Virus record (IMG/VR): IMGVR_UViG_2778261152_000009
Location: 1-39,710 of that record
Reading direction: 5' to 3' (one strand)
DNA length: 39,710 nt
Source: a virus
Lineage: Duplodnaviria > Heunggongvirae > Uroviricota > Caudoviricetes
Made by a program: the position numbers and the translations under genes. Position 1 is the stretch's first letter, and every line of letters starts with the position of its first letter. Below the pieces are notes generated by a model. The model was given only the letters and a program-made list of their open reading frames with translations, was not told the DNA's origin and did no database searches. Shown here piece after piece: positions 1,873 to 19,097 of this stretch.

Positions 1873-1883
1873 TGGATTTGCCC

Positions 1884-2789
1884 CTATATTTCCAGACACC
1901 TGTTATCACTTAACCCATTACTGGCTTGCTGCCGTAGATATTCCCGTGGCGAGCGATAACCCAGTGCACTATGCGGATGCCATTCGTTATAATGCTCGAA
2001 CGCCTCTGCAAGGTTCTTTGCTGCCGTTAACCCGTCTGGTTTGGGCATGACACTGATGTAGTCACGCTTTATCGTTTTCACGAAGCTCTCTGCTATGCCG
2101 TTACTCTCCGGACTCCGCACCGCCGTGCTCTTCGGTTCAAGCCCCAACATCCGGGCAAACTGCCGTGTTTCATTAGCCCGGTAGCATGAACCATTATCCG
2201 TCAGCCACTCTACTGGAGACGCCGGAAGCTCGTTGCCGAAGCGGCGTTCCACCGCTCCCAGCATGACGTCCTGTACTGTTTCACTGTTGAAGCCGCCCGT
2301 AGTGACCGCCCAGTGCAGTGCCTCACGGTCACAGCAGTCCAGCGCGAACGTGACTCGCAGTTTTTCTCCGTTATCACAGCGGAACTCGAACCCGTCAGAG
2401 CACCATCGCTGATTACTTTCTTTCACAGCCACTCTGCCTGTATGTGCCCGTTTCGATGGCGGTACAGCAGGTTTTCGCTCAAGCAACAGCGCATTCTGGC
2501 GCATGATCCGGTAAACACGTTTGGCATTGATCGCAGGCATACCATCAAGTTCTGCCTGTCTGCGAAGCAGCGCCCATACCCGACGATAACCATACGTGGG
2601 CAGCTCTCCGATAACATGGTGTATACGGAGAAGCACATCCGTATCATCAGTGTGACGACTGCGGCGGCCATCCATCCAGTCATCGGTTCGTCTGAGAATG
2701 ACGTGCAACTGCGCACGCGACACCCGGAGACAACGGCTGACTAAGCTTACTCCCCATCCCCGGGCAATAAGGGCGCGTGCGCTATCCAC
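1884..2789 (-). CDS. insD: IS2 transposase OrfB (InsD, DDE catalytic domain)
   Basis: 301-aa ORF recognised as IS2 InsD ([34 protein letters not shown]...); overlaps the upstream orfA in the -1 frame as in IS3-family frameshift-dependent transposases. Confidence 0.9.
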
Positions 2790-3112
2790 TTTTTTGCCCG
2801 TCCATATTCAACGGCTTCTTTGAGGAGTTCATTTTCCATCGTTTTCTTGCCGAGCAGGCGCTGGAGTTCTTTAATCTGCTTCATGGCGGCAGCAAGTTCA
2901 GAGGCAGGAACAACCTGTTCTCCGGCGGCGACAGCAGTAAGACTTCCTTCCTGGTATTGCTTACGCCAGAGAAATAACTGGCTGGCTGCTACACCATGTT
3001 GCCGGGCAACGAGGGAGACCGTCATCCCCGGTTCAAAGCTCTGCTGAACAATTGCGATCTTTTCCTGTGTGGTACGCCGTCTGCGTTTCTCCGGCCCTAA
3101 GACATCAATCAT
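2747..3112 (-). CDS. insC: IS2 transposase OrfA (InsC, HTH DNA-binding)
   Basis: ORF track gives 2747..3157; the recognised InsC begins at the internal Met [40 protein letters not shown] (121 aa, start 3112). Confidence 0.85.
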
Positions 3113-3203
3113 CTGTTCTCCAATGACTAGTCTAAAAACTAGTATTAAGACTATCACTTAAATAAGTGATATTGGTTGTCTGGAGATTCAGGGGGCCAGT
3201 CTA

Positions 3204-3208
3204 GTTCT
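3204..3208. repeat. IS2 target-site duplication, right copy (GTTCT)
   Basis: Direct repeat of 1868-1872 immediately after the IS2 end. Confidence 0.85.
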
Positions 3209-3328
3209 CCATTCCATTCACCTGTGACTCGGAAGTGCATTTATCATCTCCATAAAACAAAACTCGCCGTAGCGAGTTCAGATAAAAGAAATCCCCGCGA
3301 GTGCGAGGATTGTTATGTAATATTGGGT

Positions 3329-3610
3329 TTAATCATCTATATGTTTTGTACAGAGAGGGCAAGTATCGTTTCCACCGTACTCGTGATAATAATTTTGCAC
3401 GGTATCAGTCATTTCTCGCACATTGCAGAATGGGGATTTGTCTTCAGTAGACTTATAAACCTTCATGGAATATTTGTATGCCGACTCTATATCTATACCT
3501 TCATCTACATAAACACCTTCGTGATGTCTGCATGGAGACAAGACACCGGATCTGCACAACATTGATAACGCCCAATCTTTTTGCTCAGACTCTAACTCAT
3601 TGATACGCAT
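3329..3610 (-). CDS. Hypothetical Cys/His-rich small protein
   Basis: 93-aa ORF with Cys/His spacing C-x6-C-x2-HH ... C-x13-CPLC suggestive of metal binding; first gene of a leftward cluster of unknowns; no family recognised. Confidence 0.45.
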   Translation of the reverse strand: MRINELESEQKDWALSMLCRSGVLSPCRHHEGVYVDEGIDIESAYKYSMKVYKSTEDKSPFCNVREMTDTVQNYYHEYGGNDTCPLCTKHIDD

Positions 3611-3801
3611 TTATAAACTCCTTGCAATGTATGTCGTTTCAGCTAAACGGTATCAGCAATGTTTATGTAAAGAAACAGTAAGATAATACTCAACCCGATG
3701 TTTGAGTACGGTCATCATCTAACACTACAGACTCTGGCATCGCTGTGAAGACGACGCGAAATTCAGCATTTTCACAAGCGTTATCTTTTACAAAACCGAT
3801 C

Positions 3802-4536
3802 TCACTCTCCTTTGATGCGAATGTCAGCGTCAGACATCATATGCAGATACTCAACTGCATCCTGAACCCATTGACCGCCAATCCCGTAATAGCGATGCGT
3901 AATGATGTCGATAGTTACTAACGGGTCTTGTTCGATTAACTTCCGCAGAAACTCTTCCAGGTCACCAGTGCAGTGCTTGATGACAGGAGTTTTCCCAGGA
4001 TGGCGAACAACAAGAAACTGATTTCCGACTTCACGGACTTCGTTGCTTTCCAGTTCTGCAATGCGCTTCTCTGCGGATTCCAACGCCGCAACCAATTCGT
4101 CTACAGTTCCGGCAGCTTGCAGTGCGTAATCGGTAATAGCCATCTCATGATCAATTTCAGTACCGTTCTCATTCGTTGAGGTGATAGCAAAATAATCAGA
4201 GTCGATTTCGTTATCAGCTAAGTGGCGTAGCGTATCGGCAACAAGCCGGCCGTTTTCGATTAGCAGCTTCCCTACCGTTAGCGCAATATCCTCGTTCTCC
4301 TGGTCGCGGCGTTTGATGTATTGCTGGTTCCTTTCCCGTTCATCCAGCAGCGCCAGCACGGTTTCTGGTCCGGTCAGAAATTTGAAGGCGTTGAGCGCAT
4401 CAATATCCACACCGTAATCTTTAAGTTCCTGTTCACTTAACAAATCATCATCAGCTGGCAACATTAACAGGCGTTCCATTGCCGGAATTGCACGTTCTGC
4501 CGCCTCACGCAGTGCCTGATAGTTAATGTTGGTCAT
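3802..4536 (-). CDS. Hypothetical acidic protein, possibly Ead/Ea22-like
   Basis: 244-aa acidic ORF with predicted coiled-coil character (repeated AELES-type segments); position between int/xis and the recombination genes matches lambda 'ea' genes; family assignment is from memory only. Confidence 0.45.
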   Translation of the reverse strand: MTNINYQALREAAERAIPAMERLLMLPADDDLLSEQELKDYGVDIDALNAFKFLTGPETVLALLDERERNQQYIKRRDQENEDIALTVGKLLIENGRLVADTLRHLADNEIDSDYFAITSTNENGTEIDHEMAITDYALQAAGTVDELVAALESAEKRIAELESNEVREVGNQFLVVRHPGKTPVIKHCTGDLEEFLRKLIEQDPLVTIDIITHRYYGIGGQWVQDAVEYLHMMSDADIRIKGE

Positions 4537-4537
4537 A

Positions 4538-4837
4538 TCACATCACCCTGAAGCCGTTGCATTTACGTAAAAAATCGCAGATATAGCCCTTCATTTTTTC
4601 GTGCCAATCTCGATCATTCCCATTGCACCAACCATCAGGTGGAGTCCAGTTTTCTATCAGAGCAGCCATTTTCTTTGCTTTCGCCGGAGTAGCTGTTGCG
4701 GTATCGCAGTAATGACGAGTGTCAACCAACGTATCCATACCATCGATATCAAGTACGCAAAACCATGTGTGATTCGGCATTTCAACAGATGGTATTTGTT
4801 GCCCACGTCGACGTTTATCAATAAGACATACAGTCAC
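4538..4837 (-). CDS. Hypothetical protein
   Basis: 99-aa ORF whose stop abuts the next gene's start; several Cys residues; no family recognised. Confidence 0.45.
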   Translation of the reverse strand: MTVCLIDKRRRGQQIPSVEMPNHTWFCVLDIDGMDTLVDTRHYCDTATATPAKAKKMAALIENWTPPDGWCNGNDRDWHEKMKGYICDFLRKCNGFRVM

Positions 4838-5334
4838 TGGTTGCCTCCTTTGCGAAGCTGTTCAGCAATACTTACGCATATCTCTGCGCCTCTAATCAGC
4901 CCCGGAACGTTCTTGTTTGGCCCAACTTCACCATCGACAAAATCAATCATCGCGTTACGAGCCATATCCACGCCCTGCGCACGTACTTCAGCCAGAAAAG
5001 CATCGGTGGCTGGGGTTTTGATTTCGTTAAGCGCATCACTGAATCCACCACGCTCCATACCTAGCTCTGCTTCGTAATCGGCATCGAATGCAGCGTCTTT
5101 GCAGAACTTCTTCATCCCCGCACTCTCCGCTGCCAGCGCCACGCACTTGGCCTCAAGGTTATCAATCGTGATTCCAGCAGAACGACACTCCCGCAACGCC
5201 GTTTCCAGTTTTGATTCAAGTTCACCGAACTTACGCACCAGATATTCAGCGTTTGTTTCGTTAACCTTTAAATCTTGTGGGATGCATTTACCTTTCAGAA
5301 AACCATCCATCTCAATTAGTGACATTTGTTTCAT
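4834..5334 (-). CDS. Hypothetical protein
   Basis: 166-aa ORF overlapping its neighbours by 4 nt at both ends (operon-like coupling). Confidence 0.5.
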
Positions 5335-5495
5335 TTTTTCCCACTCCGCAACATCGCATTCAGATATTTGTTTTGATTTACTGACGGAAAAGAATTTCTC
5401 TTAAGCAATTCCTCTCTCGATGACATTGGCTTTACGCGTTGGCGAATAATCATTTCTGCCGGAAGAATGCCGGGATTGTATGCAAGTCCTCTCAT
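5331..5495 (-). CDS. Hypothetical small protein (start uncertain)
   Basis: ORF track gives 5331..5645, which overlaps the upstream gene out of frame by 140 nt; the internal ATG at 5495 with GAGG 8 nt upstream gives a 54-aa product starting just after the upstream stop. Confidence 0.3.
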
Positions 5496-5505
5496 GGTAA
5501 ATTCC

Positions 5506-5799
5506 TCAGTCATTACTGATAGCACCATAGCGTGAGCGGTAATTACGCAGGCGCGGGTCAATTTCAGGGAAGTGGGTATATGTGGCTTTGCGGAATGGTC
5601 GGATTGATGTCTGGTAAATTCGCTCGCGTTCTTCTTTCTCTGCAAGCCATATACAGTGGCGAAATTCCTTTTCCTCTTTCGTTTCCTGCGGTAGCGACAT
5701 TATCCGATCGTAGTTTTTTCTGAATTTATCCAGCACCTCCGATACGGAATTGCCGGAACAGCGGCGCGGGTCATCCGCACCATACAGAGGCGCTGGCAT
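5506..5799 (-). CDS. Hypothetical protein
   Basis: 97-aa basic ORF immediately downstream of the exonuclease gene on the minus strand. Confidence 0.45.
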
Positions 5800-5815
5800 G
5801 TTTTTCTCCTGTTGA

Positions 5816-6364
5816 TTATTTAGCTAACTTTTTCCAGATCGCTGAAACGTATTTGGCTTGGTGAATGGCATCATCAAGAGCGTTGTGGCGAGTTCCTTTG
5901 AATGGCATATCTCGCTTAGGGTCGAATCCTATTGCCTTCCCAAGTTCGACGATTGTTCTTACGTCGCGGTCATTCCACCACTGCCACGGAACTGGCTGCC
6001 CTGTCAGCGAATAACTGTTGCGGAGAATAACGCAGTCAAATGATGCTCCATTCCCCCAAACCTGAACGAATTTGTGGTTAGCGTTCTTTATGATGAATTC
6101 AGATAACCATGAAAGAGCCGTTGAAAGCTCCTGAGTGTTGCTGGTTAGCGATTTTCTGGCTTCTTCACTCTGTTCCAGCCACCATAAAATCGTTGAAGCG
6201 TCAGGACGCGCCCGATATCGCATTGATGACTCAAGCGAGATATTTACCGAGAACTCTTCTCCTGTTTCTCCGGTATTCGGGTCAAAGAATACTGCCCCAA
6301 TAGAAATAACTGGCGCGTATGGCCCGTTGCCCATTGTTTCAAGGTCAACCATCAAGTGATTCAT
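5816..6364 (-). CDS. DEDD-type 3'-5' exonuclease (DnaQ-like fold)
   Basis: 182-aa ORF with N-terminal Exo I-like motif MVDLETMG (D-x-E), a later HNALDDA segment resembling the Exo III H-x4-D motif, and predicted acidic residues between. Confidence 0.65.
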   Translation of the reverse strand: MNHLMVDLETMGNGPYAPVISIGAVFFDPNTGETGEEFSVNISLESSMRYRARPDASTILWWLEQSEEARKSLTSNTQELSTALSWLSEFIIKNANHKFVQVWGNGASFDCVILRNSYSLTGQPVPWQWWNDRDVRTIVELGKAIGFDPKRDMPFKGTRHNALDDAIHQAKYVSAIWKKLAK

Positions 6365-6372
6365 GTAAGTCC

Positions 6373-6852
6373 TTAAATTGCGTGAATAGCGTGATGAGGG
6401 AAAGGGAGAGTTACTGGTTCCTCGTCTGGGTAGATAGGTTTGTTATGTTTGTGCCACTCGACATGACATGACTTGCAGAGCCACATTACATCGGTTGGTT
6501 TGCTGTAGTCGCAGTGGTGCGCCTGTGGTTTACATTCTGATCCGCAGCACTCACATTGTGGTGGTCGGATTAGCTTACCGTCGCGCAAAAAATTACCCAC
6601 GATGATGTGGGCTTTTCTTTTCCATGGGTTGCTCTGAATGAACCGCTTTTTGGCTGCGTTACACCGTTCTCTGCCGCGTTCCGATGATTGATATTCTCTC
6701 CTTGCTGATACTCGATGTGGCAATCCCGCGCGCTCTTTGTCGTATTCAGCCAGGCAAGCCCGGCAAGCGGCAGTTAATCCATCTCTGGATGCTCTTCTGA
6801 TTTGAAAGTCCCTTTCTTCCTTCTGTTGATGACATCTTGAGCAGATTTTCAT
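6373..6852 (-). CDS. HNH-family endonuclease
   Basis: 159-aa ORF with paired CxxC motifs (CSRCH, CRAC, CECC, CKSC) and the HNH-like segment AHHCDYSKPTDVMWLCKSCHVEWH. Confidence 0.65.
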   Translation of the reverse strand: MKICSRCHQQKEERDFQIRRASRDGLTAACRACLAEYDKERAGLPHRVSARREYQSSERGRERCNAAKKRFIQSNPWKRKAHIIVGNFLRDGKLIRPPQCECCGSECKPQAHHCDYSKPTDVMWLCKSCHVEWHKHNKPIYPDEEPVTLPFPHHAIHAI

Positions 6853-7335: not shown

Positions 7336-8043
7336 TTATGCCGCCTGTTTTAGTTCGTCAACTCTGATGTTCATTACCTGAACGCATTTAGCCTGCGCCT
7401 CCTCGTTGCCAGCCATTAATTGCCAGTCATGCTGATAACGTTCGATGAGTTTTTTCTTGTCAGTTTCTGTTGACGCATAATCGCTGAAGTCTTTCAGGAT
7501 TTGTTCGCAGTCAACCGATGGAGATTTCTGGTTGGTATTTTCTGGTGATGGTTTGTTATCTGATGCTGGGATTGCCCATCCCGGCAGCGATGGAGGGAGC
7601 CAGTAAAATCCTGTTCCATCCTTGAGTTTTGCCCTGTGCCATCCCTGCTTTTTGTCGAGAGATGTTTGTGCGAAACCTTCCTCAAGGTTATACAGATACC
7701 GACCGATTCCCCACTGAACGGCAGCGCGCTTCATTGCACCTGAACGACCACCTTTGACGGCTTCTACCTGCGTGTTTTCAGCAGCATCCCATTTGGTTAC
7801 CCATTCGGAATCAATCTTTATTGATATGCCGCATTCAACGCCGCCGTTGTTGGGAATATCGCGGTATTCATTGCGCCATCCTGCTTTGCCACAAACATCG
7901 TCCAGGCGTTTCATGATTGCCCGGTTCGTGACATAAGCCAGCACCATAGCCCACACCTTGCCATCGCGTGTTTTACCGCTTTGCTGTATTCGCCATTCGA
8001 TATCTTCAGGGCTGAATGGCTCATCGAATTTGTTCAAATCCAT
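7336..8043 (-). CDS. Single-strand annealing protein, Rad52/22-like (recombinase)
   Basis: 235-aa ORF directly upstream of and abutting ssb; N-terminal region with conserved-looking KxDGxxxWA and GRYLYNLEEG segments resembles Rad52/Sak-type annealases as I recall them. Confidence 0.6.
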   Translation of the reverse strand: MDLNKFDEPFSPEDIEWRIQQSGKTRDGKVWAMVLAYVTNRAIMKRLDDVCGKAGWRNEYRDIPNNGGVECGISIKIDSEWVTKWDAAENTQVEAVKGGRSGAMKRAAVQWGIGRYLYNLEEGFAQTSLDKKQGWHRAKLKDGTGFYWLPPSLPGWAIPASDNKPSPENTNQKSPSVDCEQILKDFSDYASTETDKKKLIERYQHDWQLMAGNEEAQAKCVQVMNIRVDELKQAA

Positions 8044-8652: not shown

Positions 8653-8901
8653 CTACTCTATTTCTTCTTCGAATGATTTTATTAGTCGGTCAATAACATC
8701 ATCCGTTTCAATATCATTTCCGTCTGATTGCTTTAATACATCTATTGATTCTGCAGCGGTAAATTCCATCGCTGTGAGAAACTCGACAATTGTACACTCA
8801 ACGACATATCGTTCTTCATCTGTACGACATGAGATAAAAGAGCATTTAATTGCTGTTATTACTTTTTGTTTAAGCTCTGCAGGGTAATCAGTTTTTATCA
8901 T
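8653..8901 (-). CDS. Hypothetical acidic protein
   Basis: 82-aa strongly acidic ORF (C-terminus SFEEEIE); preceded on the minus strand by a terminator-like hairpin. Confidence 0.45.
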   Translation of the reverse strand: MIKTDYPAELKQKVITAIKCSFISCRTDEERYVVECTIVEFLTAMEFTAAESIDVLKQSDGNDIETDDVIDRLIKSFEEEIE

Positions 8902-9622: not shown

Positions 9623-9895
9623 TTACCTCGCTGTCAGTTGTTTTGATTTCCGGTAGCCTGCCGCGTAAATGGCTACGTTTGGCAGGCAAATACTTCCACT
9701 GCATTCATCTACCTTCTTGCAGCGAAGGCTTCCGAGTGATGCTGCTTTATCTGCCCTGACGCAACCAGAGAGCTTTAGCGCAATTTTTCGTGCCAATCGC
9801 TGTTCTTGCATTGCCTGTTCACGTTGAGCCTGTCTGCGTGCTCTGCGGCGATTTCTGGCGTTATCGTCAGCCAGATATGTAATGACTACTGTCAT
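9623..9895 (-). CDS. N-like transcription antiterminator (P22 gp24-like)
   Basis: 90-aa ORF with an N-terminal arginine-rich motif NARNRRRARRQAQREQ and C-terminal ...AIYAAGYRKSKQLTAR resembling P22 gp24 from memory; first gene downstream of the pL/nutL region. Confidence 0.7.
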   Translation of the reverse strand: MTVVITYLADDNARNRRRARRQAQREQAMQEQRLARKIALKLSGCVRADKAASLGSLRCKKVDECSGSICLPNVAIYAAGYRKSKQLTAR

Positions 9896-10262: not shown

Positions 10263-10652
10263 TTAGTCAGCGAAGGTTAAGACGAGAATTACCTTAATGA
10301 TGTCTGCTACAACAGACACGGCCATAGATAAACCAAAGACGATCCAAGCCACAGTGATGTCTTCACTACCATCGTATAGAGTTCCGTAATCACTGGTGTA
10401 AGGCGTAAATGTCGCGCCTTGATACAATAGGTATAAGCTTGATCCATAGAGGATAAATGCAGATATCCCTTGTATTGCTATGATCACAAGAATCATGAAA
10501 CGAGCTGATCTATGCGCCCAAGCCTGGCTTATTTTTTCTGATAGAGATTTCGCAATAAAAGCATGCGCTAAGCCGTAAATTGTCGAGATTGCCAACATCC
10601 CAAAAAAGCTTGCTATAGCGGTTCCAACCATAATCGCCCCTTGCGTGATCAA
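10263..10652 (-). CDS. Small integral membrane protein coupled to cI (rex-position gene)
   Basis: 129-aa ORF with about three hydrophobic helices; ORF-track start is a TTG overlapping the cI stop by 4 nt, alternative ATG at 10631 with AAGGGG upstream; lies between cI and OL where lambda carries rexAB. Confidence 0.6.
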   Translation of the reverse strand: MITQGAIMVGTAIASFFGMLAISTIYGLAHAFIAKSLSEKISQAWAHRSARFMILVIIAIQGISAFILYGSSLYLLYQGATFTPYTSDYGTLYDGSEDITVAWIVFGLSMAVSVVADIIKVILVLTFAD

Positions 10653-11365
10653 ACCAGCCTTAGTTTTGTCTCAATTGCAACGCCTATAATCTTGCAGTTT
10701 CCATTGATTGGCACGAGAGGCCATGCAGGATTAAGTCCCTTGAGGTATTTATTTCCGCCGTCGATTATCAGCTTCTTGAATGTTGCTTCGTTAGAGTCAG
10801 AAAGTTTTGCTATGACCAAGCTGCCGTTGATCGCCTCTCTTCCGGTATCGAAAAGAACGAATGTTCCCTCTGGAATGCTTAACCCAACCGGTGCCGTCAT
10901 TGAATCACCTTCCACTTTAAGCCAAAACGCATTACCTTGAATATGCGCGTCAGACTCAAGCCAAACATCTATGTCTTTAATGGTGTATGGTTCGCATGCT
11001 TCACACCACGAGCCAGCCTGGATACTGCTTAACACCGGATACCTCTTTCCTGCTCTGTATTCCCCTGCATACCTTACGTTGGCATCGCTCTTAAGGCTTT
11101 CTGCCTGTTCTGCAACCTTGGCAGCAATTGACTGGCTAAAATCAGCAATTGAGACTTGCAACAATCGTGCAAAACCAGATGCAACCTCAACGTTTAGCGC
11201 GTTTCTGCCATTAAGATAATGCCCTACCGCTCCTTGGGTGATACCCAGTTCATCAGCGATTGAGTATTGGGTTATTCCCAATTCTTTCTTTTTTGACTCA
11301 TACAAAGCCTTAAGCCGCTTAGCGTCTTCGAGCTGTTCTGTCGTCAGTGATTTTTTATTTTCCAT
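10649..11365 (-). CDS. cI: CI-type prophage repressor (HTH + S24 LexA-like autopeptidase domain)
   Basis: 238 aa; N-terminus LTTEQLEDAKRLKALYESKKKELGITQYSIADELGITQGAVGHYLNG parallels lambda CI; C-terminal FWLKVEGDSMTAPVG...FKKLI carries the S24 Ser/Lys region; divergent from cro across an operator region; no obvious SD upstream (possibly leaderless as for lambda PRM). Confidence 0.9.
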   Translation of the reverse strand: MENKKSLTTEQLEDAKRLKALYESKKKELGITQYSIADELGITQGAVGHYLNGRNALNVEVASGFARLLQVSIADFSQSIAAKVAEQAESLKSDANVRYAGEYRAGKRYPVLSSIQAGSWCEACEPYTIKDIDVWLESDAHIQGNAFWLKVEGDSMTAPVGLSIPEGTFVLFDTGREAINGSLVIAKLSDSNEATFKKLIIDGGNKYLKGLNPAWPLVPINGNCKIIGVAIETKLRLV

Positions 11366-18941: not shown

Positions 18942-19016
18942 GGGTCAGTCGTATAAAGGTCATTACGGAAGGCTGTTAACCTTCTTATCGTGGTTCGAGT
19001 CCACGCTGTCCCGCCA
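18942..19016 (+). tRNA. tRNA-like gene, anticodon GUU (Asn-like), imperfect cloverleaf
   Basis: Manual fold: perfect T-arm CGTGG-TTCGAGT-CCACG, perfect anticodon arm GAAGG-CTGTTAA-CCTTC with U33/A37, D-loop with GG, encoded CCA; acceptor and D stems each have one U-U mismatch. Confidence 0.4.
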
Positions 19017-19021
19017 AATAT

Positions 19022-19097
19022 GTTGGTTTAGCTCCAATGGTAGAGCAGTCGCCTTGTAAGCGAATGGGTAGCGGTTCAAGTCCGTTAACCAGCACCA
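19022..19097 (+). tRNA. tRNA, anticodon UGU (Thr)
   Basis: Manual fold: acceptor GTTGGTT/AACCAGC (one G-U), U8, D-arm GCTC-CAATGGTA-GAGC, anticodon loop CTTGTAA, T-arm AGCGG-TTCAAGT-CCGTT, discriminator A, encoded CCA; 5 nt after the first tRNA-like gene. Confidence 0.5.

Follow-up and report, generated by a model that had tools for sequence, protein, structure and literature searches.

Positions 3329-5799 of the IMG/VR virus record IMGVR_UViG_2778261152_000009, whose 39,710 nucleotides (nt) constitute the window analyzed here, carry six consecutive minus-strand genes between an integrase/excisionase pair (int/xis) and a recombination module. We conclude, with a probability of about 0.88, that this cluster represents the distal accessory end, of the 'ea' or exo-xis type, of the early-left (pL) operon of a P22-like Escherichia coli prophage. 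All six predicted proteins match Pfam or PHROG families, with E-values ranging from 1e-21 to 1e-64. Five of them exceed the Pfam gathering scores (Lambda_ea8_5, Ead_Ea22, DUF7739, DUF2737, and Anti-RecBCD_p2) and the sixth belongs to phrog_614; NCBIfam gave no match for any protein, and solved structures exist for three of the six proteins or their close homologues. By analogy with characterized relatives, the known roles would cover the takeover of RecBCD (Abc2) and the modulation of lysis and lysogeny (Ea22 and Ea8.5). The cluster is already known biology, and nothing in it departs from the lambdoid/P22-like pattern. Its features are as follows, with protein lengths in amino acids (aa).

3329-3610, minus strand: ea8.5, 93 aa
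3611-3801, minus strand: intergenic spacer of 191 nt, common to lambda
3802-4536, minus strand: Ead/Ea22-family gene, 244 aa
4538-4837, minus strand: DUF7739 gene, 99 aa, GTG start behind AAGGAGG
4834-5334, minus strand: HkaH/EaE-type gene, 166 aa
5331-5495, minus strand: DUF2737 gene, 54 aa from the ATG at 5495
5506-5799, minus strand: abc2, 97 aa
3260-3311, minus strand (3311-3260 in the minus direction): two tandem terminator-like hairpins, from a terminator scan and reading of the sequence

An earlier note on this DNA had described six minus-strand open reading frames (ORFs) of these positions and sizes, lying between int/xis and the recombination module; the ORF listing and the gene order agree. 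It had also placed them in the variable accessory region of a lambdoid prophage, a type of locus that harbors host-takeover and anti-defence genes. This holds for a P22-like prophage whose gene order parallels those of P22, lambda, and CUS-3, and which has the anti-RecBCD gene abc2 among the six. The statement that no family could be assigned was overturned by profile searches and sequence searches of the PDB, which returned a family for every ORF and PDB counterparts for Abc2, the Ea22-like protein, and Ea8.5. The idea, also raised in that note, that all six might prove well characterized and mundane is borne out in part: Abc2 is well characterized and Ea22 and Ea8.5 partly so, whereas DUF2737, DUF7739, and the 166-aa protein belong to named families without known function.

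Gene Organization and Transcription

Read along the minus strand, abc2 is followed after 10 nt by the DUF2737 gene, which overlaps the 166-aa gene by 4 nt (ATGA). The latter overlaps the DUF7739 gene by another 4 nt (GTGA), and a single nucleotide separates the DUF7739 gene from the Ea22-like gene. The earlier description of the genes as tightly packed thus fits the first five but not ea8.5, which lies 191 nt beyond the Ea22-like gene. Shine-Dalgarno-like motifs precede five of the six starts (AGGAG, GAGGA, GGAG, AAGGAGG, and AAGGAG), including AGGAG 6 nt upstream of the abc2 ATG and AAGGAG 7 nt upstream of the ea8.5 ATG; the start of the Ea22-like gene has a poor Shine-Dalgarno sequence.

A consensus scan detected no sigma-70-like promoter on either strand of the 3100-6000 interval (shuffled sequences give 5.1 ± 2.2), and the only terminator-like hairpins found there are the two at 3311-3260, just past ea8.5. 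Because of the gene spacing, the lack of an internal promoter-like site, and the confinement of the hairpins to the end of ea8.5, it is reasonable to regard the six genes as one transcription unit, in line with the single leftward unit proposed earlier. The 191-nt spacer between the Ea22-like gene and ea8.5 has no Rfam match, no promoter-like site, and no excess of structure (fold z-score of +0.54).

Abc2 and the RecBCD Enzyme

The product of 5506-5799 matches Pfam PF11043 (anti-RecBCD protein 2) over residues 1-97 of 97 (6.1e-64, 212.7 bits against a cut-off of 25), as well as phrog_656 ('abc2 anti-RecBCD'). It is 93.8% identical to Abc2 of P22 and 99% identical to HkaJ of CUS-3, and it aligns with Abc2 as resolved together with RecBCD by cryo-electron microscopy (PDB 8b1t/8b1u, 2.2e-58). 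Judged from these matches, it is a P22-type Abc2 anti-RecBCD protein. Abc2 of this type sits on RecC near the Chi-recognition domains, contacts RecC through residues 3-66, and recruits the host protein PpiB via Pro68 (PMC9836394). In the alignment to the 8b1t chain, Pro68 is kept and only two substitutions fall within residues 3-66. RecBCD bound by Abc2 remains active as a helicase and is Chi-blind, and a hand-over of single-stranded DNA to the phage annealase has been proposed; the roles of Abc1, Arf, and PpiB in this hijack are still open (PMC9836394). Phages with Abc2 avoid Chi (PMC3784561).

A Rad52-type annealase gene (7336-8043) lies upstream of abc2 on the same strand, and all sampled abc2 loci have either an Erf or a Rad52-type module upstream. 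Comparison with the P22 proteins revealed neither Abc1 nor a P22-type Erf core here.

DUF2737 and Its Linkage to abc2

The next gene encodes a DUF2737 protein (PF10930, profile positions 1-53 of 53; 3.2e-30, 104.2 bits against 25), which also belongs to phrog_1117. The ORF listing gives a longer frame, 5331-5645, of 104 aa from a TTG; because PF10930 covers only residues 51-103 of this frame, the start is placed at the ATG at 5495. The protein is basic, with an isoelectric point (pI) of 11, and is 75% identical to P22 orf56.

The surroundings of abc2 were compared in 80 IMG/VR loci with a near-identical Abc2, plus six genome loci. Downstream of abc2, 79 of the 80 IMG/VR loci have DUF2737, which in most of them starts about 10-13 nt past the abc2 stop; in about 18 of the 80, a gene of about 95 aa is inserted between the two. 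An example of this inserted gene lies at 6305-6590 of locus L013, with a product that begins MKTMKLNIDLGKYVITGTKHDL. Adjacency of abc2 and DUF2737 is found in all six genome loci, including those of Shimwellia and Intestinirhabdus, as well as in P22, and is kept where Abc2 is only 63-75% identical, as in Stx2a phages (63%). Altogether, the two genes adjoin almost invariably in the 87 loci examined (L007-L092 and L094) and in P22, while their flanks vary. Comparison of the same locus in related prophages, one of the checks put forward in the earlier note, therefore gives a near-constant abc2-DUF2737 pair followed by genes that vary widely: across the 80 IMG/VR loci, DUF7739 is present in 15 and a lambda-type ea8.5 in four. 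Upstream, the same loci carry one of two alternative modules, Erf with a 127-aa protein or a Rad52-type set.

Records with the full-length protein number 224 for Abc2 and 223 for DUF2737 in the phage collection, and the counts agree per organism group. There is no covariation between the two proteins in identity, which is 63% for Abc2 and 89% for DUF2737 in Stx2a phages, and 94% and 75%, respectively, in P22. Virulent Jersey-type phages possess shorter relatives of DUF2737; at the single locus of this kind examined, that of FSL SP-101, no abc2 was found within the 2.5-kb flanks of the DUF2737 relative.

The HkaH/EaE-Type and DUF7739 Proteins

The 166-aa protein matches phrog_614 from end to end (residues 1-166, 5.8e-58) and has no Pfam match at E ≤ 0.1. 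It shares 56% identity with HkaH of CUS-3 and 45% over 62 aa with EaE of P22, and is assigned on this basis to the HkaH/EaE type. It is acidic and has more than 7,700 homologues. When aligned, homologues prove constant over the 40 N-terminal residues, in an internal motif, and in a C-terminal QLRKGG, and variable in a helical middle part; the three constant elements are all present here. This modular build resembles that described for Ea22. The AlphaFold2 model is all-helical but of low confidence (pLDDT of 43.6 from a 20-sequence alignment), and a PDB sequence search gave no match.

RefSeq labels an identical protein 'YfdS family phage-associated protein'. Membership of the YfdS family was rejected, since the likeness to K-12 YfdS is confined to residues 3-42 (73% identity) and the DUF551 domain that YfdS carries at residues 50-117 is absent. 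Paralogy with the 244-aa protein was rejected as well, the two having no direct similarity. Both match the composite PHROGs 368, 14548, and 492, which suggests that modules of the two proteins may be fused in other phages.

The 99-aa protein matches DUF7739 (PF24881) over its full length (77.3 bits against 27) and is 99% identical to ECRS218_0058 of CUS-3. The family is small, an exhaustive profile search among 1.84 billion proteins having returned 72 representative clusters, and almost all of its members stand alone as proteins of about 95 aa. Two long matches to the profile, in multiple stretches, look compositionally odd and are probably not true relatives. The protein has six cysteines and three histidines, and an alignment of 20 homologues contains 21 invariant columns. 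A zinc site was ruled out, since no more than one of the six cysteines is invariant. No match was found by PDB sequence search. The predicted model bears a weak resemblance to small folds of the inhibitor or immunity type, such as DMP12, CdiI, and YfbM; Foldseek returned nothing with an E-value below 0.1 against the PDB, and uncharacterised proteins only against BFVD. A literature search on DUF2737, DUF7739, and hkaH found nothing useful, its results being swamped by the unrelated term 'EAE'.

The Ea22-Like Protein and Ea8.5

The 244-aa protein matches Ead_Ea22 (PF13935) over residues 3-163 (1.8e-26, 93.8 bits against 27). At its N-terminus (residues 1-94) it shares 94.7% identity with CUS-3 0059; residues 164-244 match PDB 8dsx, the lambda Ea22 structure (4.6e-47), and are nearly identical to lambda Ea22. 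Overall identity to lambda Ea22 amounts to 57%, with 62 gap positions in the latter distributed over several blocks. Its sequence identifies the protein as a member of the Ead/Ea22 family with a CUS-3-like N-terminus, a lengthened centre, and the C-terminal domain of lambda Ea22. It is acidic (pI 4.5), and it fits the long acidic protein reported in the earlier note. Ea22 of lambda and Shiga toxin (Stx) phages forms a tetramer with a central coiled coil, and favors lysogeny and host survival (PMC7093339, PMC10834534, PMC8614690).

The 93-aa protein matches Lambda_ea8_5 (PF20735) over its full length (4.8e-48, 162.2 bits against 27) and is 97.8% identical to lambda Ea8.5. It also matches PDB 2m7a (1.5e-17); the nuclear magnetic resonance structures 2m7a and 2m7b are related. 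C27, H30, C84, and C87 are kept and would be zinc ligands. These matches identify 3329-3610 as encoding the Ea8.5 of lambda, a predicted homeodomain/zinc-finger hybrid. With five cysteines and four histidines, it corresponds, as does the DUF7739 protein, to the Cys/His-rich protein noticed earlier. Ea8.5 has a homeodomain/zinc-finger fold and reduces the activity of cII-dependent promoters (PMC7093339, PMC10834534, PMC8614690). Both Ea22 and Ea8.5 are dispensable for plaque growth of lambda (PMC10695390).

Mosaic Origin and Distribution

The DNA of the window is 97.9% identical to that of lambda over 3206-4068, a block that covers ea8.5, the 191-nt spacer, and the C-terminal domain of Ea22. 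It is 98.7% identical to CUS-3 over 4263-4868, and in the block with abc2 it resembles P22 and CUS-3. The gene set would have been built by recombination at the borders of modules, with lambda-like and CUS-3/HK620/P22-like phages as the partners.

Among 5,426 complete E. coli genomes, 3,365 contain parts of the 2.7-kb segment, and only one, that of strain ES9, contains at least 80% of it in one place. ES9 is identical over 3204-5580, and no other complete E. coli genome has the six genes in this arrangement. Its copy is a thrW prophage remnant, the left end of which (int, xis, and the cluster up to 5580) lies beside the tRNA-Thr gene, next to proA. It is a deletion remnant, with the 3' end of abc2 joined to mid-gene sequence of a P22 gene-16-type ejection-protein gene (L001, 8303-9062).

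The cluster is an accessory segment of textbook type, parts of which recur in clearly more than half of complete E. coli genomes, and has little weight as a discovery. It may serve as an annotated example of extreme mosaicism, with lambda and P22/CUS-3 blocks joined both inside and between genes, and as an example in which Abc2 is paired with a Rad52-type recombination module instead of Erf and Abc1.

Recombination Module and Surrounding Prophage

The window as a whole is a P22-like prophage with portal, scaffold, coat, ejection-protein, tailspike, and O-antigen glucosylation genes, and with the integrase and excisionase genes at its left end. Upstream of the cluster and on the same strand lie an N-like gene, an anti-restriction-like gene, cIII, kil, an Arf-like small gene, and the annealase gene. 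Genes for a single-stranded DNA-binding protein (SSB), a Cys-rich HNH-like protein, and an Rv2179c-like DEDDh exonuclease separate the annealase gene from abc2.

9623-9895, minus strand: N-like antiterminator
7336-8043, minus strand: Rad52-type annealase (Rad52/22, PF04098, at residues 4-136)
6373-6852, minus strand: HNH-like Cys/His-rich protein, 159 aa (phrog_2340, no Pfam match)
5816-6364, minus strand: Rv2179c-like DEDDh 3'-5' exonuclease, preceding abc2

The annealase is chimeric: over its last 79 residues it shares 63% identity with the C-terminal end of P22 Erf. This Erf-like tail is a candidate link to Abc2-modified RecBCD, since Abc2 is retained alongside Erf as well as alongside the chimeric annealase. 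Phages with Abc2 are said to lack an exonuclease (PMC9836394); the DEDDh exonuclease encoded beside abc2 here is of the 3'-5' type, and not a resection nuclease.

Other observations concern the remainder of the window. At 8653-8901, upstream of cIII in the early-left operon, an acidic 82-aa protein matches phrog_14587 ('anti-restriction protein'), and this gene is likely a second counter-defence gene, situated outside the six-gene cluster. Lambdoid phages place exclusion genes such as rexB or sieB directly downstream of the repressor gene. At 10263-10652, directly downstream of the cI/C2-type repressor gene (10649-11365), lies a gene for a hydrophobic, membrane-protein-like product of 129 aa (phrog_6534). 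The late region contains two phage-borne tRNA genes, Asn(GTT) and Thr(TGT), at 18942-19097.

A complete IS2 copy of 1331 bp (1873-3203) resides between xis and ea8.5, flanked by the target duplication GTTCT at 1868-1872 and 3204-3208, with its transposase genes oriented as the early-left operon. It breaks a homologue of lambda orf55 after codon 12 (ORF start at 3240, remainder at about 1737-1872) that is unbroken in E. coli ES9 and lambda. The insertion separates int/xis from read-through early-left transcription, and excision may be affected. The IS2 junction was not found at 100% identity among complete E. coli genomes. The earlier note had overlooked both the IS2 copy with its disrupted orf55 homologue and the 191-nt gap before ea8.5. 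Between xis and the orf55 remnant, 1495-1710 encodes a hydrophobic protein of 71 aa (phrog_15342) that is unannotated in the identical ES9 RefSeq region, and the 63 nt at 1722-1784 are 100% identical to a P22 segment holding the terminator of the antisense aI RNA.

Proposed Expression and Alternative Explanations

As we infer from the gene order and the lambda/P22 paradigm, loss of the repressor on induction, or infection, would lead to leftward transcription from pL that the N-like protein would make resistant to terminators. The transcript would pass cIII, kil, and the genes for the annealase, SSB, the HNH-like protein, and the DEDDh exonuclease before it reaches the six genes, the translation of which would be coupled. 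If the proteins behave as their close homologues do, RecBCD under the influence of Abc2 would ignore Chi and assist the phage annealase, the Ea22-like protein would favor lysogeny and host survival, and Ea8.5 would lower the activity of cII-dependent promoters. The DUF2737, 166-aa, and DUF7739 proteins are small and devoid of any enzymatic signature; they would most likely be dispensable modulators that bind host or phage proteins.

Several points weigh against this account. The published phenotypes of Ea22 and Ea8.5 are modest, and come from lambda and Stx phages rather than from a P22-like phage. Abc1 and the P22-type Erf core are absent, which makes the cooperation of Abc2 with this Rad52-type annealase uncertain. 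The window contains no Chi site where about one is expected, a count that agrees with Chi avoidance but that alone is not significant. Finally, the role of the three small proteins as modulators that bind other proteins is presumptive.

Accessory regions of temperate phages often hold defence or superinfection-exclusion genes, and the six genes could be functions of this kind expressed in the lysogen. This appears very unlikely, given that no PADLOC defence-system model matches any of the six proteins, that no promoter-like site lies in or beside the cluster, and that its depth within the repressor-controlled pL operon would argue against expression in a lysogen. The notion that some of the ORFs are chance reading frames has practically no chance of being right: its sole foothold is that the Ea22-like gene has a poor Shine-Dalgarno sequence, whereas each ORF has a family match at E ≤ 1e-21 and homologues that number in the hundreds or thousands, and the conservation of all six refutes it.

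The genes associated with abc2 might also include a new host-takeover factor, with DUF2737 as a co-factor of the RecBCD hijack or DUF7739 inhibiting either a host protein or a system of defence, which we regard as unlikely on present evidence. In the latter case, DUF7739, and perhaps also the 166-aa protein, would be an undescribed anti-defence protein or host-protein inhibitor, and the cluster would be an anti-defence island that extends beyond Abc2; this too seems improbable to us. It is rather doubtful that DUF2737 is a dedicated partner of Abc2, i.e., the second component of a RecBCD-hijack module and not an independent accessory gene. Its place directly behind abc2 while the genes on both sides vary, the persistence of this adjacency in the genome loci, in P22, and beside diverged Abc2 proteins, and the near-equal record counts all speak for such a partnership, but the adjacency may only reflect one mosaic block. 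In the work of Murphy, Abc2 alone together with a heterologous annealase reportedly gave recombination, which counts against a need for DUF2737. The lack of covariation, the gene that can be interposed, and the Jersey-type relatives, including the FSL SP-101 locus, argue against an obligatory partnership. Should the linkage prove functional, it would add a component to the incompletely understood RecBCD-hijack system. We favor the distal accessory end of a pL operon as the explanation of the six-gene cluster.

Comparison with Known Prophages

In position and orientation the cluster matches the 'ea' region of P22, in which the early-left order is erf-abc1-abc2-orf56-eaE-orf45-eaF-eaD-eaI-eaA-eaG-eaC-xis-int. 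The likeness extends to Abc2 (93.8%), to orf56/DUF2737 (75%), in part to the EaE-type protein (45%), and to the presence of an Ead/Ea22-family protein. In contrast to P22, the cluster has no homologues of Abc1, EaF (DUF5448), EaA, EaI, EaG, or EaC, and carries DUF7739 and Ea8.5 instead, while Erf and Abc1 are replaced by a module composed of the Rad52-type annealase, SSB, the HNH-like protein, and the DEDDh exonuclease.

The cluster resembles CUS-3/HK620 in HkaJ (the abc2 product, 99%), ECRS218_0058 (DUF7739, 99%), and the N-terminus of 0059 (94.7%), with the same gene order. The HkaH counterpart is only 56% identical to that of CUS-3, which, unlike the window, possesses neither ea8.5 nor the C-terminal domain of lambda Ea22, and has Erf and a 127-aa protein upstream of abc2. 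The YfdS protein of the K-12 prophage CPS-53 resembles the 166-aa protein over its first 40 or so residues (73%), the latter differing by the absence of DUF551 and by its helical remainder.

The exo-xis region of lambda, with the order orf60a-orf63-orf61-orf73-ea22-ea8.5-orf55-xis, shares with the window a near-identical ea8.5, spacer, and Ea22 C-terminal domain, followed by the orf55 homologue. It differs by orf60a, orf63, orf61, and orf73, which are absent here, and by the N-terminal and central parts of Ea22, the protein in the window having 62 extra residues. Finally, RecBCD, which is dealt with by Gam in lambda, would here be handled by Abc2.

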